From Candidatus Omnitrophota bacterium (GTDB lineage Bacteria > Omnitrophota > Gorgyraeia > Zapsychrales > JBAZNR01): DNA of 64,000 nucleotides. The stretch spans positions 7,461 to 71,460 of the forward strand of contig JBAZNR010000001.1 of assembly GCA_041649175.1 (NCBI GenBank), given 5' to 3'. The notes under the pieces are model-generated. The model was not told the DNA's origin. It did not search any database and was given only the letters and a program-made list of their open reading frames with translations. Shown in pieces: positions 38,674-59,995 of this stretch. The position numbers and the translations under genes are program-made. Each line of letters begins with the position of its first letter. Within the stretch, counting starts at the first letter, position 1.

Positions 38674-40071
38674 TTAGTGCGCTGTTTCAGAAGAAATGTT
38701 GAATTGGATTTTCTGCGCGGCCACACAAACACCCATCATGATCCACATAAGATTTCCCAATTGCACCGAATAAAAATTTGTGTCAACAAAACTATGCGCC
38801 AAAAATCCGATCAGGCCCGATAAAGAACCCAAAAGTACGGCAAGTAAAAATTTATCAGACATAAAACGGATGCCCTTAAATGAATTCCAAATGAGGGCAT
38901 AAATGATCCATAAAAACGCAAAGAGGCCAAAGAATCCCATTTCCGCAGTCAATTGTAAATAACAATTGTGAGGATACCCACCCAGGCGACGATCATGGGA
39001 TACGCGAGTATACGTATTTAAGCCTGTTCCAAATGGAAAATCTTTGATGATCTTAAACGAGTTTTTCCAAAATTCCACACGCCCGCTGCCAAAAACCGGA
39101 ACATTCTCGCCAAGCTCAACCTGCTTTGTTCCGTTATCCTCTGCCTTTTTCTTGATCACCTTTAACTCCTGCTGAATTTTCACATTTTCAGAAACGAAAG
39201 ACACGTTCCTCTTCAATTCTAATTGCGGAAAAAAGAAAAGCAGAAATATAATAATAGTCGGAATGGATGCCTTTAGTGTCTTGGGCCATAAGACACCCAA
39301 GAAAATAAAAGCTGTAAAAAATCCCAACCAAGCTCCTCGGGAAAAAGTTCCTCCCAGTGATAAAAAACAAACGATAAGCAGAATTGAGAAAAAGATCTTC
39401 TCAACATACGGAGAACACAGCGTCTTTTTCTTGTCTTGTGTTAAACAAGGATTAAATCCGCCGACAAAAACAAAATTAAACATTAAAGAGAAAGCAATGA
39501 TCAAATAAGCACCAAAATCATTAGCTGTCCTAAACGACGCTGTCAGCCGATCTCCGGGAAACGGATTATGACGAACAAAATCAAAGCCGATAAACTGCTG
39601 CAGATAACCGCTTACCGCCGTTACTAAGGCCGAAAAAATAAAAACACCCATAAAAACCTTAAGACGCTTAAGGCTGGTCATTACTTCAATGAAAATAAAA
39701 CAAAGAAAGGTCCATTCTAACAGTTTAAAGAAGAAGCCTTGAAAACTTAACAAGTGATACTGGCTCAAAATGACCGATGTGAAGCCAGCAAGAATAAAAA
39801 CAGAGACCGGTCTTCTTAGATAGCTAGGGACGGGTAAAAACGTGCGGATAAAAAGCTTTGTTTTCTCGAGAAAAGAATTTCTGGAGCCTCTCAAGGAGGC
39901 GTTTTTTGATTCAAAATAAAAAATAACACCCCTCTTAATAAAAAAACAAAGCTGAATAGCCCCCGCAAAGATCTCTTGCAAGGCAATCGAGATAGGCAGA
40001 AAAAAGATCAAGGCACAAAAAGAAAAAGCCATCACTTGGTCAATACGATTTATTATTTTTTGATCATTCAT
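38674..40071 (-). CDS. O-antigen ligase / Wzy_C-family polytopic membrane protein
   Basis: 465 aa, about 12 TM helices. Wzy_C signature region GGTFSRGAWLGFF ... HNCYLQLTAEMGFFGL. Confidence 0.7.
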   Translation of the reverse strand: MNDQKIINRIDQVMAFSFCALIFFLPISIALQEIFAGAIQLCFFIKRGVIFYFESKNASLRGSRNSFLEKTKLFIRTFLPVPSYLRRPVSVFILAGFTSVILSQYHLLSFQGFFFKLLEWTFLCFIFIEVMTSLKRLKVFMGVFIFSALVTAVSGYLQQFIGFDFVRHNPFPGDRLTASFRTANDFGAYLIIAFSLMFNFVFVGGFNPCLTQDKKKTLCSPYVEKIFFSILLIVCFLSLGGTFSRGAWLGFFTAFIFLGVLWPKTLKASIPTIIIFLLFFFPQLELKRNVSFVSENVKIQQELKVIKKKAEDNGTKQVELGENVPVFGSGRVEFWKNSFKIIKDFPFGTGLNTYTRVSHDRRLGGYPHNCYLQLTAEMGFFGLFAFLWIIYALIWNSFKGIRFMSDKFLLAVLLGSLSGLIGFLAHSFVDTNFYSVQLGNLMWIMMGVCVAAQKIQFNISSETAH

Positions 40072-42088: not shown

Positions 42089-43408
42089 CTATTTTATAGC
42101 AGGAATATTTTGAAGGCGCAATAGTTTATCAATGGAAATTAATAACCCGATCATATACCAAAATAAAACTGAAAGCTTTAAGGAATAGAAATTGGTGTCA
42201 AAGAAACTATGGGACAAAAATCCCGCAACACCGGAAATTAACCCCAAATTTAACATAGCTAAATTTTTCTCTGTTTTCTTCATATACGACTTGATCGTCT
42301 CCAATGTCTTTTGAAAACTTTGCAGCATCAGCCAGAGAAAACTTCCCAAGCCGAAAATCCCGATTTCAAATGCTATTTGAATATAGCAATTATGCGCATA
42401 AGAAGGATAATACAGCGGCAAACCGCTGGGGTTAACAAAACATTTTTCAAATAACATCATGTATGTGTTTAGCCCATAACCAAAGATAGGTTTTTGCGCG
42501 ATCATTCTCGCGCTATAGAGCCAGACATCAAAGCGCCATGCAACGGAACCTTGCTGGCTTGCCGCGATGCGAAAAGTTTCTTTGACCTGAGAAGATGCAA
42601 AGATGGGAAATAATATGGCAGATACGAACAAAACCGTAAGCGATAATAGCGCCGCCTTTGGATTAATAAAAAACAAAAAGAACGCCCCTGCCAAGCAAAC
42701 AGAGAGCCATGCCCCGCGAGATAATGTAGCGATCAAACACCAAATTGCCGAAACAAAGATGACGAAGAAAATAACTTTCCACGCCCTTTTTACCGAAACA
42801 AACAAAAGTGATAGTGCAACCGGAAAAACAAACGTTAAATACCCTCCTAGGCTGTTGTACGTGTTAAAGCTAGCCGTAGCCCCACTCCCTTTAATGATCG
42901 TCTGCCCTAAAAAGATGTCCTTTTGAGTGAAATGAAACTGCACAATAGCGTCTAAATTAACGGCGAATGCCGAGAAAAGAAAAACCCCAACAGCCGTCAT
43001 GATGTGTTTTTTTGTTGCAATAAATTCAAGGACAAGAAAATAAACAATGAACCATTCTAAGGTTTTTGTGGTAAACCCGCGCAACGCATGCAACGGATAT
43101 GCCGATAAGACAACGGAGATCAAACACGCCGCAAGAAAAACTAAGATAGGAAGGTCAAGAAAACTCGCCGCCGGCCTAAAACTTTTTAAAAATAAACTAA
43201 TTTTTCCTTTTAATACGAGATTCTTAAAAGATCGCGCATCAAAAAGGATGATCCGTTTAGCGATCCACAACAATAAAGAAATAATGACGCATGCCTCTAC
43301 AACAGCAGAGCCATACGGAAGCCAGAAAATAAGAAGGGAGAGGAAAACCCGAGCAACTGCATTGATCCGCTCTACTAAAACCCCATTATGTGCGCTCAAG
43401 CTGTCCAA
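42089..43408 (-). CDS. O-antigen ligase / Wzy_C-family polytopic membrane protein (second copy)
   Basis: [16 protein letters not shown] ... [17 protein letters not shown] Wzy_C signature. The track ORF start at 43534 overlaps the upstream gene by 121 nt; an in-frame TTG at ~43408, right after that gene's stop, is proposed. Confidence 0.65.
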
Positions 43409-43412
43409 GTCC

Positions 43413-44876
43413 TTAATAAGCTCCTTGGCCTTTGAGAATGGCAGGAATAGTTTGCAGGAGGATGTTGATATCAAGCCAAAATGACCAGTTATTGATATAC
43501 CAAATATCCCATTTAACCAGCCGAGAGAAAGCAATGTCGCTTCTTCCTCGAATTTGCCAAAGACCTGTCATCCCGGGGCGGACTTCAAGGCGTTTAAGCT
43601 GTTTAAAATCCTCTTTTTCAACCTGGTCGATAGGAAGAGGCCTGGGCCCCACTAAACTCATCTCGCCTTTGAGCACATTAAGTAATTGAGGTAATTCATC
43701 CAGGCTATATTTTCTCAAGAAACTGCCTACCTTTGTGATCCTTGGATCTTTTTTCATCTTAAAGATCGGTCCATCCACTTCGTTTTTGCACTTTATTTGA
43801 TTCATGATTAAATCCGCTTCCTTAACCATGCTTCTGAACTTATACATATAGAACATTTCCCCTTTTTTCCCGTATCGCCTTGAAGAGTAAAAAATAGGGC
43901 CGGGGCTGTCTAATTTGATCATAATGCCGATTAAAAGGAAAACCGGAAGCAGAATGATCAATGTGATTAATCCAACCGCAAAATCAAATAATCTCTTCCC
44001 TGTTTGCTTGCGAGCATTAAACTCATTTTCATATTCTAGAACCGGGATAAATCCAATGTTATACCGAGAAAAATCTCCGGAGGTCAGCTCAAACCCTTGA
44101 GGAATAACGCGTACCGCGACTCCCAAATCTCTTGCGTCCTCTAATAACTTCAAGAAAACACTGCTGTCGTGATGAACAGTAATAAAAACTTTATCAATGA
44201 ATCTCTTCTTGGCGATATCGGAAAAATCAGAGATCTTGCCAATGATCCGCATGTGCTTGTCGGCGGGATCATCTTTCTTAAAATCATCCAGAAAACCGAC
44301 GATCTTTATTCCCAGCCCCGGCCTGCTGGTAATTTCCTGAGCTAAGGCAACACCGACTTTTCCGGCGCCAACAATGATTGCATTAAAATTGTTATATCCT
44401 TGCGCCACCAAATATTCGACGAAAAGCCTTTTGATCACACGCCACAAAAAGAAAGATAAAATAATAAGCGCGATGCTGATCAAGAAAATGCTTCTCGGAA
44501 ATTCTTGAATTTTAAGAATATACTGGAGGCTAACGACTCCCAACGAAGACAAAAAGACCGACTTGGTGATCATCCAAAGCTCAATGCCTTCCATCAATTC
44601 TCTTCTTGTTTGATACAAGCCGAATAGGTTGTTAAAAATAACAACAAAGAAGATCCACGACAAAAAAAGGATCTGAAAAGGATTGGATTGAGAAGAAAAC
44701 AAACGCTGAAACTCTACAGGGAAAGTCAATGTTTCCTGCCGAAATAAGCACGCGGCAAAAATACACAGGCTGGCAATATAAACATCTATCAATATGTAAA
44801 TAAAAAGGATGGGTGGATTTTTAGATTTGGATCTCATGGCATTTCTCTGTTTGTTCAGGCCTAAATTAAAAAACAT
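43413..44876 (-). CDS. Undecaprenyl-phosphate sugar phosphotransferase (bacterial sugar transferase, WbaP/WcaJ/EpsB-like initiating enzyme)
   Basis: N-terminal TM segments plus a Rossmann-like region. C-terminal catalytic domain RLFDFAVGLITLIILLPVFLLIGIMIKLDSPGPIFYSSRRYGKKGEMFYMYKFRSM...DELPQLLNVLKGEMSLVGPRP. Confidence 0.85.
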   Translation of the reverse strand: MFFNLGLNKQRNAMRSKSKNPPILFIYILIDVYIASLCIFAACLFRQETLTFPVEFQRLFSSQSNPFQILFLSWIFFVVIFNNLFGLYQTRRELMEGIELWMITKSVFLSSLGVVSLQYILKIQEFPRSIFLISIALIILSFFLWRVIKRLFVEYLVAQGYNNFNAIIVGAGKVGVALAQEITSRPGLGIKIVGFLDDFKKDDPADKHMRIIGKISDFSDIAKKRFIDKVFITVHHDSSVFLKLLEDARDLGVAVRVIPQGFELTSGDFSRYNIGFIPVLEYENEFNARKQTGKRLFDFAVGLITLIILLPVFLLIGIMIKLDSPGPIFYSSRRYGKKGEMFYMYKFRSMVKEADLIMNQIKCKNEVDGPIFKMKKDPRITKVGSFLRKYSLDELPQLLNVLKGEMSLVGPRPLPIDQVEKEDFKQLKRLEVRPGMTGLWQIRGRSDIAFSRLVKWDIWYINNWSFWLDINILLQTIPAILKGQGAY

Positions 44877-45099: not shown

Positions 45100-45128
45100 T
45101 TGACACTGGCAAAGACTAATGATATAGT
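45100..45128 (+). promoter_or_regulatory. Sigma70-like promoter for the radical-SAM/Gfo-Idh-MocA fusion gene
   Basis: TTGACA (45100-45105), 17-nt spacer, TATAGT (45123-45128). About 95 nt upstream of the ATG at 45224, in a 347-bp divergent intergenic region. Confidence 0.5.
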
Positions 45129-45223: not shown

Positions 45224-47089
45224 ATGTTGAAACTTAAAGATCTCCTTTCATCTGTTGACAAGAATCGTTTGCGAAAAATCCGCAGTACGCTCTACCAAAG
45301 CCTTTTTTATAGGACAGCCTACCAGGCTTCTCACCTCAAAACCCCTCTTTTTAAACATGTCTTGATCCAAACGAACAACCGCTGTACACGAAAGTGTTCT
45401 TTTTGCTGGTACGGAATGAAGGATGTCAAAATCGTTGATGAGGAAATGCCGGAATGGCTATTTCATAAGATCATCAATGACCTTGTGGCCATTGATTATT
45501 CAGGAAGAATAAGCCTTTTTGAAATGAACGAGCCCTTAACGGATCACCGTGTCTTTGAGTGGGCAAAATATGTCAAGCAGAAACTGCCTAAAGCATGGCA
45601 GTTGATCGCCTCCAACGGCGATCTTCTCACGGAAGATAAAGCTATTGCCCTTCTTGAGAATGGTGTTGATTTTCTTAATATTAGCTCATATTCCGATAAC
45701 AGCTACTTGAGAATGAAGTCGTTAATTCGTTCTCTCCCGAAGAAATTCTCAGATCGCATGATCAATACCAGGTCTAAACCAGAAACTATGTCTGATAATC
45801 GGGGAGGAAATTTGCCCCACATTCAAGCCGTTTTTATCCCTCTTAAAGAACCGTGTAGCCGCGTTAATCATGTCCTCTATATTAAGCCAAGTGGAAATGT
45901 CGTTTCTTGTTTTGGCGATTATTTCAATGTCAATTCCATGGGCAACACAAAAGAAGAAAGCCTAACCGCAATTTGGTTCGGGAAGAAATTTGAAACACTA
46001 CGGAAAAATCTAAACCGCGGTAATAGAAATATCTCTTCGTTATGCCAAAGCTGCAATGTCGGCGCCGGAACTAATTTCGTTACACGCGCAAAACAAAACC
46101 GATGGCTGCAGGAAAGCAAAATTAAAACCGGAATTATCGTCGGAGCAAGCCAATCCGCTCATCTTTTCTTTCCGTCTTTTAGAAAGTATTGTAAAATTAA
46201 TTCTGTCATATCAAAAAATCATCTACACGACCCATTTTTCCGCAGCCGAAAAGTTCCCATGACAGAAAATCTCAAAGAGGCCTTATCGGATCCAACCGTT
46301 GATTTCGTGTTTGTTGCCAATGAAAGCGGTAATCATTACGAGGCCGCAAAACAAGCCCTGCTCGCTAACAAACATGTGTTGATCGAAAAGCCTACGACTA
46401 CCCAGGTAAGCCAGGTTGACGAATTAATTGAATTGGCGCGTTCGCGTAATTTAGTTTGCGCCGGAATATCACAATGGCGTTTCCTTAATTTGGCAAGCCT
46501 GACTAAGCAATGGATCAAAGAAGGACGGTTTGGCAGTCTTCTTTTTATAAACGCTAAATTACTTTGGCAGCGAGATAAAGATTATTACATTAGGCAACGC
46601 GGTACCTGGAGCTCGGATGGAGGCGGAGTTTTGATCAAACAAGCTATTCATTGTTTGGATCTGATGTTTGATCTTGGCGGAGTTCCGGTTTCGTGGAGCG
46701 GATATTGTTCAAACCAATCCATGGGGCTAGAGACTGAGGACACCTCTTTGGTGTCTTTACGATTTCAACAAGGCTTTGGGTCTTTGATCGCGACAACGTG
46801 CCACTTTGAGGAAGAAAAACCGCAGATCGAGATCATCGGAACGAAAGGAAGGATGGCTTTTAATATTTGCGACCAAATTACCCGTTGGGAATTGCCGTTT
46901 TCAAAACCAGTTTTTGTCCCGAGAAGCAATATCTTTGACCGGCAAATAAAAAACTTTTTGGAATCGATCGATGAGCCTTCAAAACTTGTCGTAACAGCCC
47001 CTCAAGGAAGAGAAATTCTTGCCGTTATTGAAGATATTTACAAAAAATCATTTCTTAGGGCTGACACCCAAAACGAGATCCTTAAGTAA
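45224..47089 (+). CDS. Fusion protein: N-terminal radical SAM domain with a Cys-rich SPASM/twitch-like extension, and a C-terminal Gfo/Idh/MocA-family NAD(P)-dependent oxidoreductase
   Basis: 621 aa uninterrupted ORF. CTRKCSFCWY (CX3CX2C) at residues ~54-63. Auxiliary Cys motifs: PCSRVNHV...SGNVVSCFGD...SSLCQSCNVG. Residues ~300-621 carry a Rossmann start KTGIIVGASQSAHLF, the Gfo/Idh/MocA hallmark HVLIEKP, and a C-terminal alpha/beta domain. Confidence 0.8.
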   Translation: MLKLKDLLSSVDKNRLRKIRSTLYQSLFYRTAYQASHLKTPLFKHVLIQTNNRCTRKCSFCWYGMKDVKIVDEEMPEWLFHKIINDLVAIDYSGRISLFEMNEPLTDHRVFEWAKYVKQKLPKAWQLIASNGDLLTEDKAIALLENGVDFLNISSYSDNSYLRMKSLIRSLPKKFSDRMINTRSKPETMSDNRGGNLPHIQAVFIPLKEPCSRVNHVLYIKPSGNVVSCFGDYFNVNSMGNTKEESLTAIWFGKKFETLRKNLNRGNRNISSLCQSCNVGAGTNFVTRAKQNRWLQESKIKTGIIVGASQSAHLFFPSFRKYCKINSVISKNHLHDPFFRSRKVPMTENLKEALSDPTVDFVFVANESGNHYEAAKQALLANKHVLIEKPTTTQVSQVDELIELARSRNLVCAGISQWRFLNLASLTKQWIKEGRFGSLLFINAKLLWQRDKDYYIRQRGTWSSDGGGVLIKQAIHCLDLMFDLGGVPVSWSGYCSNQSMGLETEDTSLVSLRFQQGFGSLIATTCHFEEEKPQIEIIGTKGRMAFNICDQITRWELPFSKPVFVPRSNIFDRQIKNFLESIDEPSKLVVTAPQGREILAVIEDIYKKSFLRADTQNEILK

Positions 47090-47812
47090 ATAAAAAATAA
47101 ATTTTGAATTTCCTATCAAGTACCGCCGCCATAATCTTCCCGGCTCGCAGCACAATCTAAATATCCATTCCAGCCCTGAATTTTGCATCCAAATCGGCGC
47201 TTGAGATTTTGTTCCGGCGATAAAATCAAAAGCGGCCCCCACGCCAACCATCACTGGAACATTCAATCTTAAACGATGCTCGGACATCCAAATATCTTGC
47301 TTGGGAGATCCTAATCCGACCCACAGAATATCAGGACTACAACGATTAATTTCTTCAACAATCGCCTTGTCTTCTTCAAAAGATAAATTCCGGAACGGAG
47401 GCGAATACTTCCCGGCAATATTTATTTTCGGAAATTTCTGACGCAAATTCTTCTCTAAAAGATCACAAGTTTCCTGGGATCCGCCATAAAAATAATGAGC
47501 GCAGTTTCGCTCTTGGCTTAAACGACAGGTTTCCAGCATAAGATCCGGCCCATACGTTCGTTTTATCGTTTTATGCCCTTTTAAACGTCCCAGCCAAACA
47601 AGCGGCATTCCATCCGGCGTTACCATAGCAGCGCCATTAATGATAGAACGATATTGCTCGTCTTCCTGACAGCGCACAACGGTAGAAACCGGAGCAATAC
47701 ATACGTAGGTTTTATTTTTTTGCTCGATCCAGCGAAAGATATGAGCGCACGCTGCCGGAATATCCACAGAGCTTATCTTAACGCCTAAAATATCAACGTA
47801 TTCCTGAGCCAT
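47048..47812 (-). CDS. WecB/TagA/CpsF-family glycosyltransferase
   Basis: 254 aa. MAQEYVDILGVKISSVDIPAACAHIFRWIEQKNKTYVCIAPVSTVV...VTPDGMPLVW, typical of WecG/TagA. Its 3' end overlaps the 3' end of the convergent fusion gene by 42 nt. Confidence 0.85.
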   Translation of the reverse strand: MAQEYVDILGVKISSVDIPAACAHIFRWIEQKNKTYVCIAPVSTVVRCQEDEQYRSIINGAAMVTPDGMPLVWLGRLKGHKTIKRTYGPDLMLETCRLSQERNCAHYFYGGSQETCDLLEKNLRQKFPKINIAGKYSPPFRNLSFEEDKAIVEEINRCSPDILWVGLGSPKQDIWMSEHRLRLNVPVMVGVGAAFDFIAGTKSQAPIWMQNSGLEWIFRLCCEPGRLWRRYLIGNSKFIFYLLKDLVLGVSPKK

Positions 47813-47818
47813 AAAAAA

Positions 47819-49039
47819 TTAGCTGCCTCGCTTAACAGGCCTTTTATCCTGGGAGTAATCGAAAAAAGCCTGAATGATATAATCTAAGTCTTTTTGAGTA
47901 AAATATTCATGACAGCCAATATAAAACGCATGGCGATTTAAGAATTTTGCCACCGGAAACCTGTCTTCTAGCCCGGGGCCAAACAATCGTTCATAGACCG
48001 GTTGATTGACAAGCGGAAATAATTCACGTGTTTCTATTCCACGCTGTTCAAGAAAATTGATCAGCTCTGTTTTGGGTTCGTCTTTGACCACCAAGCCGTA
48101 CAGCATGAACATATTATCCCGGTCTAAAAAAGTAGACGGCAGCTGTAACTTGCTTTCAAGCTTTTTTAACCGACGAGTTAAATACAAAGCATTTTTTCTT
48201 CGCCCGCGGATGATCTTATTTCTTTCTTTCATTTGCGCAACACCTAAAGCCGCCTCTAATTCCGTACATCGATAAGAATAACCAATGTCCACAAATCGAA
48301 ACCTTTTCGCGATCACTTTTCTTAAGCGGTCAGGGCTGGAAACTTTGTCATCATCAATAGTCAAGTAAATCGGATCTCTGCCATGATTCATGAGAGAACG
48401 CATCGTAATAGAAAGCTGGCGATCGTTGGTCGTGGCAAATCCTCCCACGCCCGTAACCAGAAAATGCGCCGTATACGTCGAGAAACATCCGATATCGCCG
48501 ATAGAGCCGACCTTCTTCCCTTTATAATGCGCGAACATTGTTTCGCAAGAATCTTCGATGACTTTCAATCTGTATTGCTTGGCAATTTTCATAATGGGAG
48601 CCATGTCCGCCGGAAGCCCCAGCAAGTGGACAGGAATAATACATCGCGTTTTCGGCGTGATCGCTTTTTGAATAAGTTTTGGATCAATATTAAAAGTTTG
48701 AGGATCAACATCCACGAAAACAGGCTTCATGCGGCAGGCGATAACGATGTTCGCCGTCGCGACAAAAGTAATTGCCGGAACAATGACCTCATCACCGTCT
48801 TTCCAGCCAAACGTACTTTTGAGCGCGTGAAGCGCGATTTGCAAGGCACTCGTTCCGCTGTTTGTGAAAATGCTATATTTTACATCATGCGCCCGGGCGA
48901 ACATTCTTTCAAGGCTGCGATGAAACGGCCCATAAGAAAGCCGGCTGCTTTGTAAAACTTGATTAACCAGCTTGATCGCTTGAGCGCTAACCTTCAGTTC
49001 TCCCACGCCTAATTGCTTCTTTTTAATAACTTTAGCCAT
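47819..49039 (-). CDS. DegT/DnrJ/EryC1/StrS-family PLP/PMP enzyme with His at the Schiff-base Lys position: putative nucleotide-sugar 4-keto-6-deoxyhexose 3-dehydratase (ColD/E1-like)
   Basis: Type-I aminotransferase fold (SGTSALQIALHAL; DSCETMFAHYKG). The active-site stretch GDIGCFSTYTAHFLVTGVGG aligns with the canonical GDxxxFSFHxxKNxTxGEGG, with H in place of K. Confidence 0.8.
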   Translation of the reverse strand: MAKVIKKKQLGVGELKVSAQAIKLVNQVLQSSRLSYGPFHRSLERMFARAHDVKYSIFTNSGTSALQIALHALKSTFGWKDGDEVIVPAITFVATANIVIACRMKPVFVDVDPQTFNIDPKLIQKAITPKTRCIIPVHLLGLPADMAPIMKIAKQYRLKVIEDSCETMFAHYKGKKVGSIGDIGCFSTYTAHFLVTGVGGFATTNDRQLSITMRSLMNHGRDPIYLTIDDDKVSSPDRLRKVIAKRFRFVDIGYSYRCTELEAALGVAQMKERNKIIRGRRKNALYLTRRLKKLESKLQLPSTFLDRDNMFMLYGLVVKDEPKTELINFLEQRGIETRELFPLVNQPVYERLFGPGLEDRFPVAKFLNRHAFYIGCHEYFTQKDLDYIIQAFFDYSQDKRPVKRGS

Positions 49040-50015
49040 GATTCCCCTTTTGTTTTTTCTTGAAATATTGTTGCCACCAATTTAGCACATCATCCAGCGT
49101 TTGGTCTAAGCTAATTTCCGGTTTCCAGCCCGTGCGCCTTTTTAATTTTCGGTTATCCCCGCAAAAATCAGGGATATCAAGTTTGCGCATTTTTTGAGGA
49201 TCCTTCAAAACAGATATTTTAGCATTTGTCTTAGAAAGAAGTCGTTTTAAAATATCCTCGATGGCAACTGATCGGCCGCTACAAACGTTGAAAGCTTCTC
49301 CCATATTAGCCTTTTTCATAATGCAATAATAAGCCCCGACAACATCTCTGATGTCACTAAAATCACGTTTTGCCTTGAGATTCCCGACGTAAATTATTGG
49401 TTTTCTCAGTCCAAGCTCAATTTGAGCGATCTGGCTGGCAAAATCAGAAACAACAAATGCGTTCGATTGCCAAGGGCCGGAAAAATGGAACGTACGCGTC
49501 GTATTGATCCGTAGCTGATAATTTTTTCGATAACGTTCCACAAGTTTTTCTTGTATCATTTTGCTAATTCCATACGGGCTAACCGGGGCAAGGCTTTGGC
49601 TTTCGCGGATAGGCAAATCTTTTGGGCTCACCTTCCCATATTCTTCCGCTGATCCGGTTAAAAGAATTTTTGACCGAGGAGAGGTCTTAATAACGGCTTC
49701 AAGGAATTTGGACACTCCCAAAACATTGGTTTCATAAATCGAAGGCGCCATCTCAAAAGAACGCGCGACAGTAACAACAGAACAAAGAAAGTATATCTCG
49801 TCCGCAGAGACCTTAGAGAGAACTTCTTTGATCCGAGAATAATCATTGATATCACACTGAAAAAGTAAACATCCCTTCAAGGTATTTTTCTTAAAAGCAT
49901 CAAGCTTTTTATTATAAGTGCCTACAATTTCATTTTTCTCAACAGTTTTAAGATAATTCCAAAGATGCGATCCGGAAAACCCGTCAACACCAAAAATTAA
50001 TATCCGTTTTTTCAT
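49032..50015 (-). CDS. NAD-dependent epimerase/dehydratase (extended SDR), probable nucleotide-sugar reductase/epimerase
   Basis: ILIFGVDGFSGSHLWNYL Rossmann motif, catalytic SPYGISKMIQEK (YxxxK). ATG at 50015 forms an ATGA overlap with the upstream GT4 gene; the track ORF extends further. Confidence 0.8.
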   Translation of the reverse strand: MKKRILIFGVDGFSGSHLWNYLKTVEKNEIVGTYNKKLDAFKKNTLKGCLLFQCDINDYSRIKEVLSKVSADEIYFLCSVVTVARSFEMAPSIYETNVLGVSKFLEAVIKTSPRSKILLTGSAEEYGKVSPKDLPIRESQSLAPVSPYGISKMIQEKLVERYRKNYQLRINTTRTFHFSGPWQSNAFVVSDFASQIAQIELGLRKPIIYVGNLKAKRDFSDIRDVVGAYYCIMKKANMGEAFNVCSGRSVAIEDILKRLLSKTNAKISVLKDPQKMRKLDIPDFCGDNRKLKRRTGWKPEISLDQTLDDVLNWWQQYFKKKQKGNHG

Positions 50016-51181
50016 TTTACGTACTTTTCGAAAATGTCGAGCATTTCTTCTGAGTAAAATCGCCAACTTATATTGTCCTCAACAAACTTTCTTGCATTCT
50101 CGGCTATTTTCTCGCTTAATTCTTTATGAAGAATAAGTTCTTCAACGGCACGTGCAAGCTCACCGGGAGAATCCGGCCGAACAATCATTGCATTTTCTTG
50201 ATCTTTGAGCACTTCGCTAGCACCACAGCCATAAGTAAGGACAACAGGGATCCCACACGCCATTGCCTCAAACACCGATAAGCCCCAGGTTTGAGGGCTG
50301 TTAGGAAATAAATACGCGTCGGAATTCTCATAGAATTTTAAAAGCTCTGGGGCAGACACGGAACCATTGAACTTAAATCTTTCCTGAAGATTTAATTGGT
50401 CGATCAGCTTGAATATTTTTCTTGTATATTTTAAGTTTTGTTTCAAATCCCCGATATGCTCAATAAAAATATTATGCCCGCGGTCAAGGAGGATCTTTAA
50501 GGCTCGAACACCGTCTTCCACTTTCCGATGAGGATATAGGACGCTTGTCATCAATATCGTAACAACATCTTTATGCGTTCTTTTCGAAAATTTAAACCAC
50601 TCCGCGTTAAGCCCGCTACGAACAATTTTTGACTCTCGATTGAAATTCTTTTTTACACCTTTCTGGTTAATACTGTCCAATACGACAATCTCTTCAAACC
50701 GCTGAATAAAACGGCGATATTCCGGCCTTATATAATACCCGATCGTTTTGGGGATGCTTTTCAAATTCCATTTAAAAAGAGGAAGATCGTTCATCATCCA
50801 AACAACAGGCTTGTCGTATTTTCTCTGCCATAAGCCCGCTGTCACATAAACACCATAATCATGCGGGTTAAGAACGTCCAGATCGGTATCAACAATATCC
50901 AACAATTGCCTGTGTTTTTTGCCGGTAAAAAATATGAAATATTTGTACAGATATTCCAGGTCCGTTGCCGGACAATCAGCCTTGTCGGCATTTTTGTGCA
51001 GCTTGACACAACGAATGTCCAGCCCTTCACATAACCCGGGGTAACTTCTTTCCTTATCGAAAATATAAGTGTAGATAATAACCTTATGGCCGTCACGCAA
51101 TAAATTACGCGCTAATTCCAAAGCTTGACGTTGCGTACCGCCTTTAATATCCAGCTGCCAGATTAAAATACCGATTTTCAT
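50012..51181 (-). CDS. Glycosyltransferase family 1 (GT4, GT-B fold)
   Basis: 389 aa. C-terminal EX7E-type region FPNSPQTWGLSVFEAMACGIPVV. Confidence 0.85.
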   Translation of the reverse strand: MKIGILIWQLDIKGGTQRQALELARNLLRDGHKVIIYTYIFDKERSYPGLCEGLDIRCVKLHKNADKADCPATDLEYLYKYFIFFTGKKHRQLLDIVDTDLDVLNPHDYGVYVTAGLWQRKYDKPVVWMMNDLPLFKWNLKSIPKTIGYYIRPEYRRFIQRFEEIVVLDSINQKGVKKNFNRESKIVRSGLNAEWFKFSKRTHKDVVTILMTSVLYPHRKVEDGVRALKILLDRGHNIFIEHIGDLKQNLKYTRKIFKLIDQLNLQERFKFNGSVSAPELLKFYENSDAYLFPNSPQTWGLSVFEAMACGIPVVLTYGCGASEVLKDQENAMIVRPDSPGELARAVEELILHKELSEKIAENARKFVEDNISWRFYSEEMLDIFEKYVK

Positions 51182-53586: not shown

Positions 53587-54591
53587 TTATGCCGAGTACC
53601 AGGAACACTTTTTACAAACTTCTGGCTGGTTACCGGTCATAAAGCTTTTCTTGATATCCACAACGACCTGAGAATTATACAATTGCGAGAGGCTTTTCTC
53701 CTTAACATTCCCAAGATAAAGCTCATCACGTTCACCTTTCGTATCGATACGGCAACCACATAATCGAACATCACCATTTGGTTGCAACTGCAAAACAGAC
53801 GTACGCGAGCAAGGAAGGAGCTTTACAAAATCCGAGCTTTTTATTTTCATTCCCGGAAGTAGATCTTCCTGCTTTATGGCCCCTGTCCAAGCATCAAAAT
53901 GGACCATATTGATCACTTCAACGTTTCTGCCGATATGCGGTTTGATGTACTGAATATAATCATTCAGCACTTCGCATTCACCAAGCGGCCTATCTGCCCT
54001 GAATTCAAGAAGTATCTTTTGGATCGTCAACGCCGAGTTTCTATCCTGCTGCAACTTTTGGAACTCTTTTAATATTTCATGAGTATTGGATAGTACTTGC
54101 TTATAGGCATTGGTTCGAAAGATCTTTTTGTACGCCTCTTCTGTAAGAGGCGCTAAGGAAATATGCAAGCGAGTCAAACCACTGCAAAGAATTTCAGTAA
54201 AACCAAATTTATGAAAAAGGCTTGCATTAGAATACGCGTGAATTGAATCAAATCCAAGCTGATGAAGATAGCGGATCTTTTCCAGCGCCTTAGGGTCAAC
54301 AAATAGCTCCCCTAAAAGTGGCGTCAGGCCAATTCTCTTCCCGTTTAAATCCCTGTAATCCTTCGCAGCTTTACGGAACAGCTCATCATCCATGACCGCT
54401 TTAGGCCGCCGGTCATACTGATAAGAGCAGAAAATACAGTTAGCATTGCAAATACTAGTGGTATCCATGTAGAGAGATTTCGCCACAGCCTTGCCAAAAG
54501 GACGAAGCAAGAAAAACACAATATTCTCTTTTGTATTGCCGGCAATACCAAGTAAGAAATTCAGCATGGCAGCACGAAAATAGTTAAGCAA
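53587..54591 (-). CDS. Radical SAM protein with C-terminal Cys-rich SPASM/twitch-like domain (paralogue of the N-domain of 45224..47089)
   Basis: 334 aa. CNANCIFCSY (CX3CX2C). C-terminal PCSRTSVLQLQPNGDVRLCGC...EVCKKCSWY aligns with PCSRVNHVLYIKPSGNVVSCFGD...SLCQSCNVG of the fusion protein. Confidence 0.8.
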   Translation of the reverse strand: MLNYFRAAMLNFLLGIAGNTKENIVFFLLRPFGKAVAKSLYMDTTSICNANCIFCSYQYDRRPKAVMDDELFRKAAKDYRDLNGKRIGLTPLLGELFVDPKALEKIRYLHQLGFDSIHAYSNASLFHKFGFTEILCSGLTRLHISLAPLTEEAYKKIFRTNAYKQVLSNTHEILKEFQKLQQDRNSALTIQKILLEFRADRPLGECEVLNDYIQYIKPHIGRNVEVINMVHFDAWTGAIKQEDLLPGMKIKSSDFVKLLPCSRTSVLQLQPNGDVRLCGCRIDTKGERDELYLGNVKEKSLSQLYNSQVVVDIKKSFMTGNQPEVCKKCSWYSA

Positions 54592-55559: not shown

Positions 55560-57077
55560 TTAACGGCTTGTTAAATAACTTTTGATCTTTTGCAATGTAT
55601 TAAGCGGCAACGTTAACCGGAATTCTTCTTTTTGCCCTTTCTTCTCTTTAAGCACCCAGATCTGCCAAGTGCCATTTTGATAGGCCAATTGATCACGATA
55701 AATATTTTCCAAAACAACGGCATCAGCTTCATCATTGATAACTAAAAAACTATTTTCTCGAAATGACACATTCTTTTCGTTAATGGCAGAAGCATATGTT
55801 ATGGGAACAGAGGAAAAATTTTGCAAAGCCCCCGCTGTCTCCTGATAATGCGGCGGATAAAAAAACTTACCCGGATTTTCTTTATTAAGGGCAACAATTG
55901 CTTCAACTACTTTGCGCTTATCAGCCATTTTTGAAATCCGCGGAATAATGATCTCGAGCAACACCAGAAAGACAATCACGATAATTGCTGCTTGCGCTAA
56001 ATAAATAAGGGGTTTTTGCTTCGGCATCCATGCCGCTATCAAAAAATAAATGGATACCATGATAAACGGCGCCAGAGGCGCCAGGAGATAATTGGGAAAA
56101 CCCCACGGCAAAAGTAAGAGTATGTAGATGATCATCCACAGAGGACAAATCAAAAAAAGCGGATCAAGAAATTGACGCCGCTTACCCCACCAAAAGTAAG
56201 CAGCTGTCAAAATACTTAGCCCCGCAATACCAATGGCGACTTTCATCATTCCCGGAATAGTTTTTAACATCCCTAAAAGTACTCCGATATTTAAATTGGA
56301 TTTGTAGTGCGCCGTGTATCCGCCTAAAATGGTTTTGATAAAGATCACATAAGAAAACCCGGCAATCACGCTGACCAATAAAAGGATCTTTGAGATCTTG
56401 ATATTCTTTTTGAAGATCAACAAATCCAAAGCGGCATAACCCGCATAGGAAAAGAGGAACACAACGCCTGTTTCCTTGCCGAGAATACTTAAAAACGCCA
56501 ACGATAAAGCGCCCCATAAATATCCAAAAGAATTATTCCGATAGCTTTTGACCAAAAACCATAAAGAAAGCGTTCCGAATATAAAAATAAATTTTTCCTG
56601 CAAAGAAATGTACATAAAGGTATTCCAAAACGGCAAAAAAGCAAAAAAACTTAACGGATAAACATACTTTTTAAATTCCGCCGTCATGCCTCCTTCGGGG
56701 AGAAGTTGGTGAATGATCTTTCCCCAGATCAAAAGAACCCAAGCTCCGGTGGCAAAAATAAGAAAATACAAGAAAAGCGGATATGGGATCTGATAAGCTA
56801 AAACGATCCAAAGATAAAGAAGTGGGCGAAATCTGCCAAAGACCTGCAGGTCTTCGTTGATCAGGTCAGGAAAAGACATTTTCCCCTGCCAAAACAAAGT
56901 TGCCCGTTCACGAGACTGCCAATCATCCATAAATCCCCAACCCGGGCTTAAAATAAAATATGCTCCCGCGACCGTCAGAATAAAAATAATGTAGACAGCT
57001 TGCTCCCAGGAAATGCGCCGCAAAAACAATCGCAGATTCGACAAAGCCCCTTGAATATACTTCTCGAAAGATGCCAT
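55560..57077 (-). CDS. Polytopic membrane protein, putative GT-C-fold glycosyltransferase (ArnT/PMT-like partner of the GtrB-like synthase)
   Basis: 505 aa. About 11 TM helices with an early Asp-containing loop (GWGFMDDWQS). C-terminal ~130-aa soluble domain. Assigned from context and topology only. Confidence 0.4.
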   Translation of the reverse strand: MASFEKYIQGALSNLRLFLRRISWEQAVYIIFILTVAGAYFILSPGWGFMDDWQSRERATLFWQGKMSFPDLINEDLQVFGRFRPLLYLWIVLAYQIPYPLFLYFLIFATGAWVLLIWGKIIHQLLPEGGMTAEFKKYVYPLSFFAFLPFWNTFMYISLQEKFIFIFGTLSLWFLVKSYRNNSFGYLWGALSLAFLSILGKETGVVFLFSYAGYAALDLLIFKKNIKISKILLLVSVIAGFSYVIFIKTILGGYTAHYKSNLNIGVLLGMLKTIPGMMKVAIGIAGLSILTAAYFWWGKRRQFLDPLFLICPLWMIIYILLLLPWGFPNYLLAPLAPFIMVSIYFLIAAWMPKQKPLIYLAQAAIIVIVFLVLLEIIIPRISKMADKRKVVEAIVALNKENPGKFFYPPHYQETAGALQNFSSVPITYASAINEKNVSFRENSFLVINDEADAVVLENIYRDQLAYQNGTWQIWVLKEKKGQKEEFRLTLPLNTLQKIKSYLTSR

Positions 57078-58293: not shown

Positions 58294-59010
58294 TTATCCG
58301 CGGAAAAAATGTTTCTTTTTCTTCTCAAAGATTTCCTGCGCAGGCTTAAGATCGGCAAGGCGGCCAAGGTCAAACCAAATATCTTTACTTTCATAACAAA
58401 AAACTTTTTCTTTGGCTATTTTCATGCGCCACATCAGATCGGGCATGCCAATGCACTCGCCTTTTTTAATGTAATCTTTACAGCGTTCGTTAAGAATATT
58501 AACTCCCAAGCTAAAACAGGATTCTGTTTTTGGTTTTTCATTATAGCTGGTTAATTGCAAACCTTTATCTAAGGAAATAACTCCGAAATCAGCCCGAGTA
58601 ATAAAACGCTTAAAAACAATGGTGGCGATGCCTAATTTGCTCTTGTGAAAGTTGAGGATATTTTTGAAATTCATATCGGTCAATGTATCGCCGTTTATGA
58701 CTAGAAAATCATTTTTCATGCCTTTAATGAGCTTTAAAGCACCCGCTGTCCCCAGCGGTTTATTTTCATGCACATAGCGAATACTGACCCCCCAGCGCTT
58801 TCCGTTGCCAAAATAAGTTTTAATGAGCTCAGCATGATAACCCGTTGAAATAATAATATCCGTCATGCCAAAGAACTTTAGCTGACGGATAATGATCTCG
58901 CAAATAGGAAAGTCTCCGATCGGAATAAGCGGTTTGGGTAAAATAGTCGTGTAGGGTTTAAGCCTTGAGCCTTGTCCGCCAGCCAAGATAACAGCTTGAA
59001 GTTTAGACAT
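58294..59010 (-). CDS. Sugar-1-phosphate nucleotidyltransferase (short NTP_transferase family, HddC/RfbF-like)
   Basis: AVILAGGQGSRLKPYTTILPKPLIPIG ... LGTAGAL ... INGDTL. 238 aa. The nucleotide specificity is not decidable from sequence alone. Confidence 0.8.
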   Translation of the reverse strand: MSKLQAVILAGGQGSRLKPYTTILPKPLIPIGDFPICEIIIRQLKFFGMTDIIISTGYHAELIKTYFGNGKRWGVSIRYVHENKPLGTAGALKLIKGMKNDFLVINGDTLTDMNFKNILNFHKSKLGIATIVFKRFITRADFGVISLDKGLQLTSYNEKPKTESCFSLGVNILNERCKDYIKKGECIGMPDLMWRMKIAKEKVFCYESKDIWFDLGRLADLKPAQEIFEKKKKHFFRG

Positions 59011-59995
59011 TATAAATCTCCGCTTTATACTTTGAGAGGTTCGCTTTGATCCACTGGCATGTCTTTTTTAAGCCCTCTTCTAGCGAAACTTTTGGGGCCC
59101 AGCCGCAAAGCTGGGAGAAGCAACTCGCATTACACCAAAGCCTTTCCACTTCACTGGTGTGGGGGCGAAGCCTCTCTTTCTGCGTCGTAATTGTTATTTT
59201 TTTGCCCATGATCGCAGAAATGAGGCGGACCAATTCTAGAATAGATATTTCACTGTTTGTTCCAATGTTGAATACTTTTCCATCGACATTTTGAGTCTGC
59301 GCAAGTTTCATATAGCCGTCAACGACATTAGAGACATAATTAAAATCCCGCGTCGTTTTGAGATTTCCTAATTGGATAGATCTTTTCCCGGAATAAATTT
59401 GAGTGATGATCGTTGGAATAACGGCTCTGGCTGATTGACGAGAGCCGAATGTATTAAACGGCCGCAAAATAGTGACGGGGAGTTTAAAGGAATGATAAAA
59501 CGATAACGCAAGATGATCCGCCGCTGCCTTGGTCGCCGCGTAAGGAGATTGTGGATTTAAGGGGTGATTTTCATCCATGGGAACATATTGAGCCGTTCCA
59601 AATACTTCGCTGGTTGATGTATGGATAATTCTTTCAACTCCGGTTTTGCGTGCGGCCTGCAGGACATTTAGAATACCTTTAATATTTGTATCCACATAAC
59701 TATCGGGAGAATGAAAACTAAAAGGAATTCCGATCAAGGCCGCCAGGTTAAAAACAATATCAACGCCTTTCATGGCTTCCAGGACACCATTAGGGTCTCG
59801 AACATCACCGGAAAAGACTTCAATCTTCTTCAGCTGATCTTTTGAAAGGCTGTCCAGCCAACCCCACGTATTAAAAGAGTTGTAATAAGTAAAAGCCCTT
59901 AAATGTGCCCCGCTTTTAATAAGCCGCTCGACTAAGTGGCTCCCAATAAAGCCATCTGCCCCTGTGACCAAAATTTTCTTTTTTTTCCAATTCAT
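59003..59995 (-). CDS. NAD-dependent epimerase/dehydratase (extended SDR), probable nucleotide-sugar 4,6-dehydratase/epimerase paired with the nucleotidyltransferase
   Basis: ILVTGADGFIGSHLVERL; catalytic STSEVFG ... SPYAATKAAADHL (S, YxxxK). 8-nt overlap with the nucleotidyltransferase gene. Confidence 0.85.
   Translation of the reverse strand: MNWKKKKILVTGADGFIGSHLVERLIKSGAHLRAFTYYNSFNTWGWLDSLSKDQLKKIEVFSGDVRDPNGVLEAMKGVDIVFNLAALIGIPFSFHSPDSYVDTNIKGILNVLQAARKTGVERIIHTSTSEVFGTAQYVPMDENHPLNPQSPYAATKAAADHLALSFYHSFKLPVTILRPFNTFGSRQSARAVIPTIITQIYSGKRSIQLGNLKTTRDFNYVSNVVDGYMKLAQTQNVDGKVFNIGTNSEISILELVRLISAIMGKKITITTQKERLRPHTSEVERLWCNASCFSQLCGWAPKVSLEEGLKKTCQWIKANLSKYKAEIYNV

Follow-up and report, generated by a model that had tools for sequence, protein, structure and literature searches.

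The subject of this analysis is a single gene at positions 45224-47089 of a 64,000-nucleotide (nt) stretch of DNA from a Candidatus Omnitrophota bacterium (contig JBAZNR010000001.1, positions 7,461 to 71,460 of the forward strand), hereafter called the window. The gene encodes a protein of 621 amino acids (aa), in which a radical S-adenosylmethionine (SAM) domain homologous to the dehydrogenase BtrN is followed by a Gfo/Idh/MocA oxidoreductase, and it lies within an island of glycan biosynthesis genes. The parts of the gene are listed below in window coordinates.

45224-47089, plus strand: whole fused gene, 621 aa and stop codon, with an ATG start and an open reading frame (ORF) without interruption
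45224-45346, plus strand: N-terminal helical extension, residues 1-41, absent from BtrN and partly conserved in the fused clade (Y..H..T.LF)
45347-45838, plus strand: radical SAM core, residues ~42-205, including DNRGG (191-195), matched to BtrN (4M7T) by profile and by Foldseek
45383-45406, plus strand: CX3CX2C motif (C54, C58, C61) of the SAM-binding [4Fe-4S] cluster, located by alignment
45416-45418, plus strand: Met65, the start codon used by NCBI for a 557-aa product, which loses the CX3CX2C motif
45839-46063, plus strand: twitch domain, residues ~206-280, with ligands C211, C229, C274 and C277 for one predicted auxiliary [4Fe-4S] cluster
46064-46129, plus strand: linker between the domains, residues 281-302, helix predicted at 288-298
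46130-46483, plus strand: Gfo/Idh/MocA Rossmann domain, residues ~303-420 (Pfam PF01408, 62.3 bits)
46142-46159, plus strand: GxSxxA loop, G307-A312, from the motif table
46385-46393, plus strand: EKP, residues 388-390, from the motif table
46484-47059, plus strand: Gfo/Idh/MocA C-terminal alpha/beta domain for substrate binding and oligomerisation, residues ~421-612 (PF22725, PF02894)
46637-46651, plus strand: Lys472 to His476, within DGGGVLIKQAIHCLD of the C-terminal domain, from the alignment

Two enzyme domains in one reading frame

The initial annotation of this DNA had claimed a single 621-aa ORF joining a radical SAM domain to a Gfo/Idh/MocA oxidoreductase, and this is borne out by ORF calling and by the Pfam domains, which follow one another along the protein as Radical_SAM, SPASM/twitch, GFO_IDH_MocA N and GFO_IDH_MocA C. 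The linker between the halves is weakly conserved in sequence, yet the frame is preserved across all fused homologues. A full-length AlphaFold2 (AF2) model of the 621-aa protein reached a predicted local distance difference test (pLDDT) score of 83.5 and a predicted template modelling (pTM) score of 0.81; its N-terminal extension is modelled with moderate confidence as helices spanning residues 2-36, and the pTM value gives a weak hint that the two halves might pack rigidly against each other.

In the public record the gene has another start. The NCBI entry (P0001; P-numbers denote proteins and L-numbers loci) is 100% identical, but has 557 aa covering residues 65-621 of the query, and carries, on a 1.17-Mb contig, the product name 'MAG: Gfo/Idh/MocA family oxidoreductase [Candidatus Omnitrophota bacterium]' (MAG, metagenome-assembled genome). 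The JGI start of the homologue P0011 has the same error, as its ORF in L002 (6177-6290) continues upstream and reads ...QCTLKCSFC.... An alignment of ten homologues showed protein-level conservation upstream of Met65, from which it follows that the real gene product is the long form; the start at the conserved Met65 is a systematic error in the choice of start codon, which conceals the radical SAM half. Because of this start, together with a near-miss in Pfam, the protein is publicly labelled as a plain oxidoreductase and is invisible to radical SAM surveys.

The near-miss concerns PF04055 (Radical_SAM), which matched residues 50-160 with 29.2 bits against a gathering cut-off of 29.5, that is, 0.3 bits short. 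Membership of the radical SAM superfamily is therefore assigned from the match to BtrN and from the fold rather than from this score. A profile built from ten N-terminal halves and searched against the PDB sequences retrieved BtrN (4M7T/4M7S) with E = 8.4e-42 over BtrN residues 3-239, and every match of that search beyond BtrN was at noise level. Residues ~42-280 are 27% identical to BtrN over 237 aa. When an AF2 model of the N half (48 sequences, pLDDT 90.1) was compared with 4M7T, the template modelling (TM) score was 0.88, the root-mean-square deviation 2.3 Å and the Foldseek E-value 1.4e-22, with CteB, anSME and SpeY as runners-up at E-values 15 orders of magnitude weaker. In this model the N half has the partial TIM-barrel fold of radical SAM enzymes, and among solved structures its sole close relative is BtrN. 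The likeness to small twitch enzymes of the BtrN and DesII type, suggested at first, can thus be sharpened by profile and Foldseek: the N half is a full-length BtrN homologue of the twitch subclass.

The cysteines agree with this assignment. The CX3CX2C motif that had been claimed was found as C54, C58 and C61; it is present in all 11 fused sequences that span the region and invariant across 48 family members. Downstream of the core, only C211, C229, C274 and C277 are conserved in the alignment, with a spacing of C-X17-C-X44-C-X2-C (counted from the alignment), the same as that of C169, C187, C232 and C235 in BtrN. Pfam reported a SPASM/twitch match with 42 bits at residues 211-278, and its SPASM model is one that matches twitch domains as well. 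Of the SPASM/twitch-like region proposed earlier, the twitch part is retained and the SPASM part is not, as the four conserved cysteines correspond to one cluster. A two-cluster SPASM domain was ruled out, the four being the only downstream cysteines and the CX2CX5CX3C portion of the seven-cysteine motif (CX9-15GX4C ... CX2CX5CX3C ... C) being missing. Moreover, the alignment of 48 family members contains no conserved cysteine in the radical SAM half beyond the seven cluster ligands. Arg193, within NRGG, is conserved and aligned with Arg152 of BtrN, which we take to be the proposed base in BtrN catalysis.

The C-terminal half had been described as a complete Gfo/Idh/MocA dehydrogenase, and Pfam found both of its domains, GFO_IDH_MocA N at residues 306-412 and GFO_IDH_MocA C at residues 428-609 (PF22725 66.7 bits, PF02894 52.8 bits); the scores of PF01408, PF22725 and PF02894 all exceed their cut-offs, and the HVLIEKP sequence pointed out at that time corresponds to residues 384-390. 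The top match is WlbA (3Q2K/3Q2I), with a phmmer E-value of 4e-21, a Foldseek E-value of 1e-21, a TM score to the target of ~0.82 and 21-23% identity. TM scores to the Foldseek targets were ~0.8, and after WlbA the structural relatives are AFR, GnnA, GenD2, KanD2 and a glucuronide 3-dehydrogenase. WlbA, AFR, GnnA, GenD2 and KanD2 are sugar C3 dehydrogenases or reductases, and all of these relatives act on ring carbinol or carbonyl centres of sugars. None of the NCBIfam equivalog models was reached by the C half; the model for archaeal UDP-GlcNAc 3-dehydrogenase gave 53 bits against a cut-off of 450.

In the EKP motif of this family the lysine is catalytic and the glutamate touches the nicotinamide. 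K389 and P390 are invariant in the 12 fused proteins, and E388 is replaced by aspartate in two of them. The GGG loop, His476 and Asp479 are likewise invariant among the fused proteins in the alignment. The D/N-x3-H (or Y) catalytic block retains His476 throughout and has Lys472 at its first position; this residue is lysine in 12/12 fused proteins, whereas it is asparagine in 107/107 of the nearest stand-alone relatives. The active-site block of the fused clade thus reads GGGVL-x-K472-Q-x-x-H, in contrast to WlbA and the stand-alone proteins, which have asparagine at 472. A second difference is in the dinucleotide loop, G-A-S-x-S-A (GxSxxA; here G307-A-S-Q-S-A312) in the fused clade as opposed to GxGKxx in the stand-alone relatives. 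Lys472 and the GxSxxA loop are marks private to the fused clade when compared with the 107 nearest stand-alone homologues. At the end of strand beta-2 the fused clade has Ser/Thr330 (here Ser330-Lys331) and no acidic residue. The C half is a WlbA-like Gfo/Idh/MocA domain that looks catalytically intact.

It has been described for this family that GxGxxG is the mark of NAD enzymes and GxGxxA that of NADP enzymes (GFOR and AAOR, for example), that GxSxxA is natural in the NADP-dependent reductase AFR, and that an acidic residue following beta-2 leads to the selection of NAD (PMC11612644). On account of the GxSxxA loop and of serine or threonine in place of an acidic residue after beta-2, the C half is predicted to bind NADP(H). 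Such an NADP-type loop would fit a biosynthetic reductase.

Fused homologues and split gene pairs

Eleven further clusters of fused proteins were found at 41-63% identity, giving a total of 12 with the query, and only four full-length fusions of the same type occur among 1.84 billion 50%-identity representatives. The fusion architecture is therefore rare but recurrent. One full fused homologue, 46% identical, comes from an isolate, Chryseosolibacter histidini PWU4 (Cytophagales, Bacteroidota; NZ_JAHESF010000013.1, L011 9929-11758). A rough neighbour-joining tree built from 128 BtrN-like sequences places the N halves of the fused proteins in one clade of 14 leaves, whose only stand-alone members are P0121, which is genuine (L009), and P0122, which lies on a 1.3-kb contig. 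The pairwise identities of N and C halves co-vary across the fused proteins (Pearson r = 0.90), and this fits a single old fusion followed by co-divergence of the two halves.

The same two families also meet as separate genes, as was seen when species-representative genomes and metagenome contigs were scanned, with a 15-sequence subset used for finding loci and a subsequent local hidden Markov model (HMM) scan of all loci. Seven of the 11 loci with enough flank have a stand-alone BtrN-like gene with an abutting or overlapping Gfo/Idh/MocA gene. The Gfo gene comes first, with an 8-nt overlap, in L013 (a Proteobacteria MAG) and L015 (a Nitrospirae MAG), and the radical SAM gene comes first in L014 (Woesearchaeota), L020, L022, L023 and L025; no adjacent Gfo/Idh/MocA gene was present at the remaining four sufficiently flanked loci (L009, L010, L029 and L031). 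By our estimate, Gfo/Idh/MocA genes make up well under 1% of the genes of any genome. Given this rarity, their adjacency to BtrN-like genes in either order, in addition to the fusion, is Rosetta-stone evidence that the two families share a task. The coupled redox tailoring of a sugar-like substrate that had been proposed for the fused gene is upheld as a general reading by these split, translationally coupled pairs in other phyla. Identity between the Gfo proteins of the split pairs and the fused C half is only 17-24%. EKP and the histidine are retained in them, but residue 472 is S, Q, N or M and the dinucleotide loop reads GTGxxA, so that both private marks are missing. Since the split partners are distant and lack these marks, the association is to be read at the level of the families, with the fused clade as a specialised branch.

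In a second, different and seemingly unrelated fusion, P0333 (701 aa), a radical SAM half of the twitch type, longer than that of the query, precedes a Gfo/Idh/MocA domain. Fusions of BtrN-like domains with a PMT_2 glycosyltransferase (GT) of the GT-C type (P0369, 696 aa) and with a GT2 domain (P0329, 1018 aa) were seen as well. Many BtrN-like proteins of 380-510 aa have N-terminal extensions of 130-250 aa without annotation, and Gfo fragments of the K472 type exist as stand-alone sequences (P0241 and P0244), which may be either split genes or truncated gene calls.

A census of the 85 neighbours at 15 loci carrying the fusion or the pair gave as the commonest types Radical_SAM proteins (8, five of them with a B12-binding domain), GT1/GT4 (5), class I methyltransferases (5) and GT2 (4), followed by epimerase/dehydratases of the short-chain dehydrogenase/reductase (SDR) type (3), ABC exporters (2), PMT_2 (2) and DegT (2). 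No single conserved accessory gene was found beside the fusion at the fused loci. An aminotransferase as an obligate partner was ruled out, with DegT at 2/15 loci; none was present within 10 kb at the fused loci L002, L004, L007, L008 and L011, and DegT or other aminotransferases were found at L001, L009, L020 and L025. The module looks self-contained, usually engaged in glycan tailoring and independent of an aminotransferase.

The individual loci illustrate this setting. In L022 (361-10836) the split pair is accompanied by a CTP_transf_3 cytidylyltransferase of the CMP-sugar type, two B12-radical SAM genes, a methyltransferase and HisH/HisF-like genes, and in L025 (37-12864) by YfhO, PMT_2, LPG_synthase_TM, another radical SAM-SPASM gene and a second BtrN-like gene. 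L001 has LPG_synthase_TM and PMT_2 genes, in L015 the pair sits between the two halves of an ABC-2 exporter, and in L010 (4561-8828) a stand-alone BtrN-like gene comes after the two parts of a split transketolase gene and a gene for an SDR.

The glycan island around the gene

The other features of the window that bear on the fused gene are the following.

45100-45128, plus strand: sigma-70-like match TTGACA-17-TATAGT with a TG extension, 11/12 consensus positions, ~95 nt before the ATG
47048-47812, minus strand: glycosyltransferase gene of the WecG/TagA/CpsF family, convergent, with a 42-nt overlap with the 3' end of the fused gene
47819-49039, minus strand: DegT aminotransferase gene, two genes from the fused gene
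53587-54591, minus strand: second twitch-type radical SAM gene, 334 aa, with CX3CX2C and four C-terminal cysteines

The island is of the Wzx/Wzy type (O-antigen or exopolysaccharide type) and contains a phosphoglycosyl transferase, a Wzx flippase, three Wzy_C-like proteins, GT2, GT4, Gmd and Fcl. According to the initial annotation, the fused gene is the only plus-strand gene of the island, has its own strong sigma70-like promoter and converges onto a WecB/TagA transferase. The first statement holds from about 25.8 to 63.8 kb, where other plus-strand ORFs lie inside minus-strand genes, and the convergence is seen in the overlap of the WecG/TagA gene with the fused 3' end. The promoter was found as a putative site, a consensus match in a host phylum whose promoter type may differ; the region has 8 sigma-70-like sites against 5.6 +/- 2.7 in shuffled sequences, that is, no enrichment.

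The annotation had further taken the gene at 53587-54591 for a stand-alone paralogue of the radical SAM half, and this could not be sustained. Its product is a distant superfamily relative only, with 21% identity, a BLASTP alignment confined to 75 aa in its twitch domain, and a score of 49 bits with the BtrN-family HMM as opposed to more than 216 bits for true members; recent paralogy with the fused N half is ruled out by the identity and by the HMM score. No sequence relative of this product was found in the PDB.

With respect to the sugars made in the island, an NTP-transferase adjoins a LegB-type NAD-dependent 4,6-dehydratase at 58294-59995 (minus strand; 475.5 bits, level with the cut-off of the model). 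A further SDR gene lies together with DegT within 47819-50066 (minus strand), the best sub-threshold matches of DegT being RfbH, PseC and LegC. Together, the NTP-transferase, LegB-type, SDR and DegT genes suggest a branch from GDP-N-acetylhexosamine to a 4-amino-4,6-dideoxy sugar. No NeuB-like nonulosonate synthase was seen among the genes of the window, and neither a 2-deoxy-scyllo-inosose synthase nor other aminoglycoside genes were found there.

The three Wzy_C (O-antigen ligase/polymerase-like) membrane proteins are encoded at 38674-40071, 42089-43534 and 60006-61535, all on the minus strand. The longest ORF at 42089-43534 shares 122 nt with the phosphoglycosyl transferase gene (43413-44876), and because of this overlap its TTG start is probably placed too far upstream. 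A 505-aa ORF between the GT2 and GT4 genes (55560-57077, minus strand) has no match in Pfam or NCBIfam. A signature of horizontal transfer was ruled out, as the GC content is flat at 0.38-0.44 throughout the island.

Proposed reaction and known systems

According to these data it is probable that the two halves catalyse two successive redox steps on one glycan precursor. Our reading, to which we give a probability of about 0.4, is that the protein is a bifunctional sugar or cyclitol tailoring enzyme, which would oxidise a hydroxyl to a ketone by radical chemistry and reduce it again with NADPH, for a net one-way epimerisation. What the data show are the identities of the domains, the conserved cofactor and catalytic motifs, the repeated occurrence of the fusion, the partnership of the two families and the glycan setting; the substrate, the sharing of one carbon by both halves, the direction in which the Gfo half works and the net epimerisation are points that we infer.

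In the first step, the SAM-bound [4Fe-4S] cluster on C54, C58 and C61 would generate a 5'-deoxyadenosyl radical, which would abstract a hydrogen atom from the carbon of a secondary alcohol. The resulting ketyl radical would be converted into the ketone, with its electron passing to the Cys4-ligated auxiliary cluster and its proton to Arg193 as the candidate base; this step would be oxygen-independent and irreversible. In the second step, the Gfo half, of the NADP(H) type, would transfer a hydride onto the opposite face of the ketone. If both halves act on the same carbinol centre, the net result would be the one-way epimerisation of a hydroxyl at a carbon without an activating neighbour. Among the three chemistries put forward in the initial annotation (double oxidation, epimerisation at an unactivated carbon and deoxygenation), which look alike at the level of sequence, we lean towards oxidation followed by reduction because the Gfo loop is of the NADP type, the Cys4 cluster matches that of BtrN and an aminotransferase is not conserved.

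It must be taken into account that several points weigh against this reading. The closest characterised Gfo relatives (WlbA, GnnA, GenD2 and KanD2) are oxidants that feed aminotransferases, and there is a DegT gene two genes away within the window. Lysine at 472, in place of the asparagine or aspartate of the family catalytic motif, may have an effect on catalysis. The cofactor preference is predicted from motifs only, and GFOD1, a protein with GxSxxA from which EKP is absent, binds no cofactor (PMC11612644). The split Gfo partners, judging from their motifs, may not be equivalent in function to the fused C half. The fused genes in L004 and L011 lie outside glycan clusters, the one in L011 being flanked by genes for an ankyrin-repeat protein, a SASA/GH2-like esterase and a GluRS-like protein. 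Moreover, one SAM and one NADPH per epimerisation is a costly price, and simpler epimerases exist.

In a rival reading each half would carry out an oxidation of its own, at two positions or on successive intermediates, followed by a DegT-type transamination to an amino or diamino sugar, on the model of BtrN/BtrS and WlbA/WlbC (WbpB/WbpE); like ArnA, the fusion would then unite steps that do not directly follow one another. The ketone made by BtrN leads to the second amine of 2-deoxystreptamine (PMC9012708), and WlbA, GnnA, GenD2 and KanD2 oxidise ahead of aminotransferases (GenD2/GenS2, PMC5461906); the DegT gene at 47819-49039 and the aminotransferases at four other loci would be at hand for such a route. 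However, DegT is among the nearest neighbours at only 2/15 loci, five fused loci are without an aminotransferase within 10 kb, the NADP-type loop would be atypical of the NAD+-dependent Gfo/Idh/MocA oxidants, and the asparagine of WlbA is lysine in every fused protein. We therefore regard the transamination route as unlikely, though still to be reckoned with.

A deoxygenation would also make use of both halves. The ketyl radical would eliminate an adjacent hydroxyl, and the Gfo half would reduce the deoxy-ketone with NADPH, as in the C3' deoxygenation of paromamine by AprD4/AprD3 (PMC5461906). The NADP-type marks of the Gfo half and the tight partnership between the two families would agree with this proposal. 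However, the Cys4 auxiliary cluster, predicted exactly as in BtrN, favours oxidation over elimination. The protein has CX3CX2C, as opposed to CX3CX3C and a single cluster in AprD4, and on this balance we find a deoxygenation improbable.

It is still less probable that the Gfo half adds no second reaction on the substrate and serves as a structural or oligomerisation scaffold, as a nucleotide-sugar binding module or as a unit that holds NADP tightly and works in ping-pong, like GFOR and WlbA. Enzymes of the GFOR, AAOR and WlbA type retain their cofactor and follow a ping-pong course, GFOD1 is a pseudoenzyme with a Gfo fold bearing GxSxxA (PMC11612644), and WlbA was crystallised with NADH. In addition, the clade member P0121, in a glycan cluster, is without a Gfo half, having lost it or never had it. 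Nevertheless, K389/P390, His476 and the GGG loop are invariant and Lys472 is fixed in 12/12 fused proteins, which argues for selection on an active site, and EKP is present here and absent from GFOD1. Finally, the initial annotation had allowed for a frameshift or stop near nt ~46100, and although split pairs with overlapping stop and start codons do exist and a one-base error could fuse them, an assembly frameshift or chimera of two ordinary neighbours is ruled out, bar the slightest residue of doubt, by the same continuous ORF with a similar linker in 11 clusters from independent assemblies and in the C. histidini isolate genome, by the single clade of fused N halves (bar two stand-alone sequences), by the co-divergence of the halves and by the private C-half motifs, which the split partners lack.

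An extension of the oxidation and re-reduction reading to the whole family is more speculative, and we consider it possible but rather doubtful: the BtrN-like and Gfo module, fused or paired, would be a widespread, so far undescribed anaerobic epimerase that oxidises and reduces again sugars linked to a nucleotide or to polyprenyl phosphate, an equivalent of DprE1/DprE2 or ElaA/ElaC that needs neither oxygen nor flavin. If this were true, the radical SAM enzyme would make the uphill ketone irreversibly and the NADPH-dependent partner would set the stereocentre. Omnitrophota, Bacteroidota, Nitrospirota, Proteobacteria and DPANN archaea would in this way obtain rare sugars for a glycan assembly that depends on GT-C and Wzy. 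A variant with a lipid-linked substrate is hinted at by the PMT_2/YfhO GT-C genes beside the module in L001, L014 and L025 and by the fusions P0369 and P0329.

The statement of the initial annotation that this is not a described enzyme agrees with full-text literature searches, with most subscription journals outside their coverage, in which neither the fusion nor the gene pair nor a BtrN-like enzyme of a glycan locus was found to be described. To our knowledge, the chemistry of BtrN is known only from the butirosin antibiotic pathway. The large environmental family of BtrN-like proteins in cell-surface glycan pathways would give this type of chemistry a second setting, and its repeated pairing with Gfo/Idh/MocA proteins, fused or coupled in either order, is of the kind usually seen where two proteins serve a dedicated two-step reaction. 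If the reaction is indeed an epimerisation (or deoxygenation) that is irreversible, independent of oxygen and directed at an unactivated sugar carbon, it would be a new route to rare sugars and a new type of biocatalyst. The fusion is rare and uncharacterised, it is a solid lead for new sugar chemistry, and the homologue of C. histidini, with its cultured host, offers an experimental entry point.

Among known systems, the closest is BtrN (4M7T/4M7S), the 2-deoxy-scyllo-inosamine dehydrogenase of the butirosin pathway, with which the N half shares full-length homology, a one-cluster twitch domain and several pocket residues. BtrN carries out a two-electron oxidation of an alcohol to a ketone, and its Cys4 auxiliary cluster, of very low potential, has been proposed to take up the second electron (PMC9012708; PMC10337720). 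By analogy, the expected chemistry would be the conversion of a secondary alcohol into a ketone on a six-membered polyol ring. The fused protein differs from BtrN in its N-terminal extension of ~40 aa and its covalent Gfo/Idh/MocA domain, and its gene lies, in an uncultured host, in a glycan island without a 2-deoxy-scyllo-inosose synthase. Since neither this synthase nor aminoglycoside genes are found in the island, its substrate must differ from that of BtrN. It was accordingly rejected as a BtrN orthologue (2-deoxy-scyllo-inosamine dehydrogenase, EC 1.1.99.38): the homology is there, but the context of a 2-deoxystreptamine pathway is not.

The C half shares with WlbA/WbpB, the UDP-GlcNAcA 3-dehydrogenases, the EKP motif, the GGGxLxxQxxHxxD block and the catalytic histidine. 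It differs from them in the change of asparagine to Lys472 and of GxGKxx to GxSxxA, and the coupling to an aminotransferase of the WbpE/WlbC type is not conserved at the fused or paired loci. Functional membership of the WlbA/WbpB group was ruled out by the 21-23% identity and by scores below the NCBIfam equivalog cut-offs.

With respect to the proposed reaction, ElaA (Gfo/Idh/MocA, NADP+-bound) and ElaC (SDR) have been proposed to epimerise C8 of CMP-legionaminic acid by oxidation and re-reduction (PMC13656337). Compared by description, the logic agrees with the one proposed here, in which one enzyme oxidises a hydroxyl and a second returns a hydride from the other face. DprE1/DprE2 and BtrE/BtrF are further two-enzyme epimerisations by oxidation and reduction. 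The oxidant in these systems is a nicotinamide or flavin enzyme, whereas here a radical SAM oxidant fused to a Gfo reductant is proposed. AprD4/AprD3, a radical SAM diol dehydratase and an NADPH reductase, carry out the C3' deoxygenation of the apramycin pathway (PMC5461906). The resemblance to the fused protein lies in a radical SAM enzyme that works on a sugar ring together with an NADPH-dependent reductase of its own, and their descriptions set them apart as separate proteins that perform a dehydration, not a dehydrogenation. The motif of AprD4 is an atypical CX3CX3C, and this enzyme is not known to have a Cys4 auxiliary cluster.

SpeY and HygY are, like the N half, twitch radical SAM enzymes that act on sugar hydroxyl carbons, and SpeY (7WZX) is among the Foldseek matches. 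However, it is a far match (E = 1.5e-6, TM 0.45, compared with 1.4e-22 and 0.88 for BtrN) with no counterpart at the sequence level. In epimerases of the HygY type, to judge from a title (Besandre et al. 2021) cited in PMC10991966, an additional cysteine returns a hydrogen atom to the substrate radical. As the N half has no spare conserved cysteine that could act as such a donor, a direct epimerase of this type is unlikely, and the HygY/NeoN group was rejected on the finding that the seven cluster ligands are the only conserved cysteines. The fused protein thus works like BtrN joined to a WlbA-like oxidoreductase, and is a member of neither functional family.

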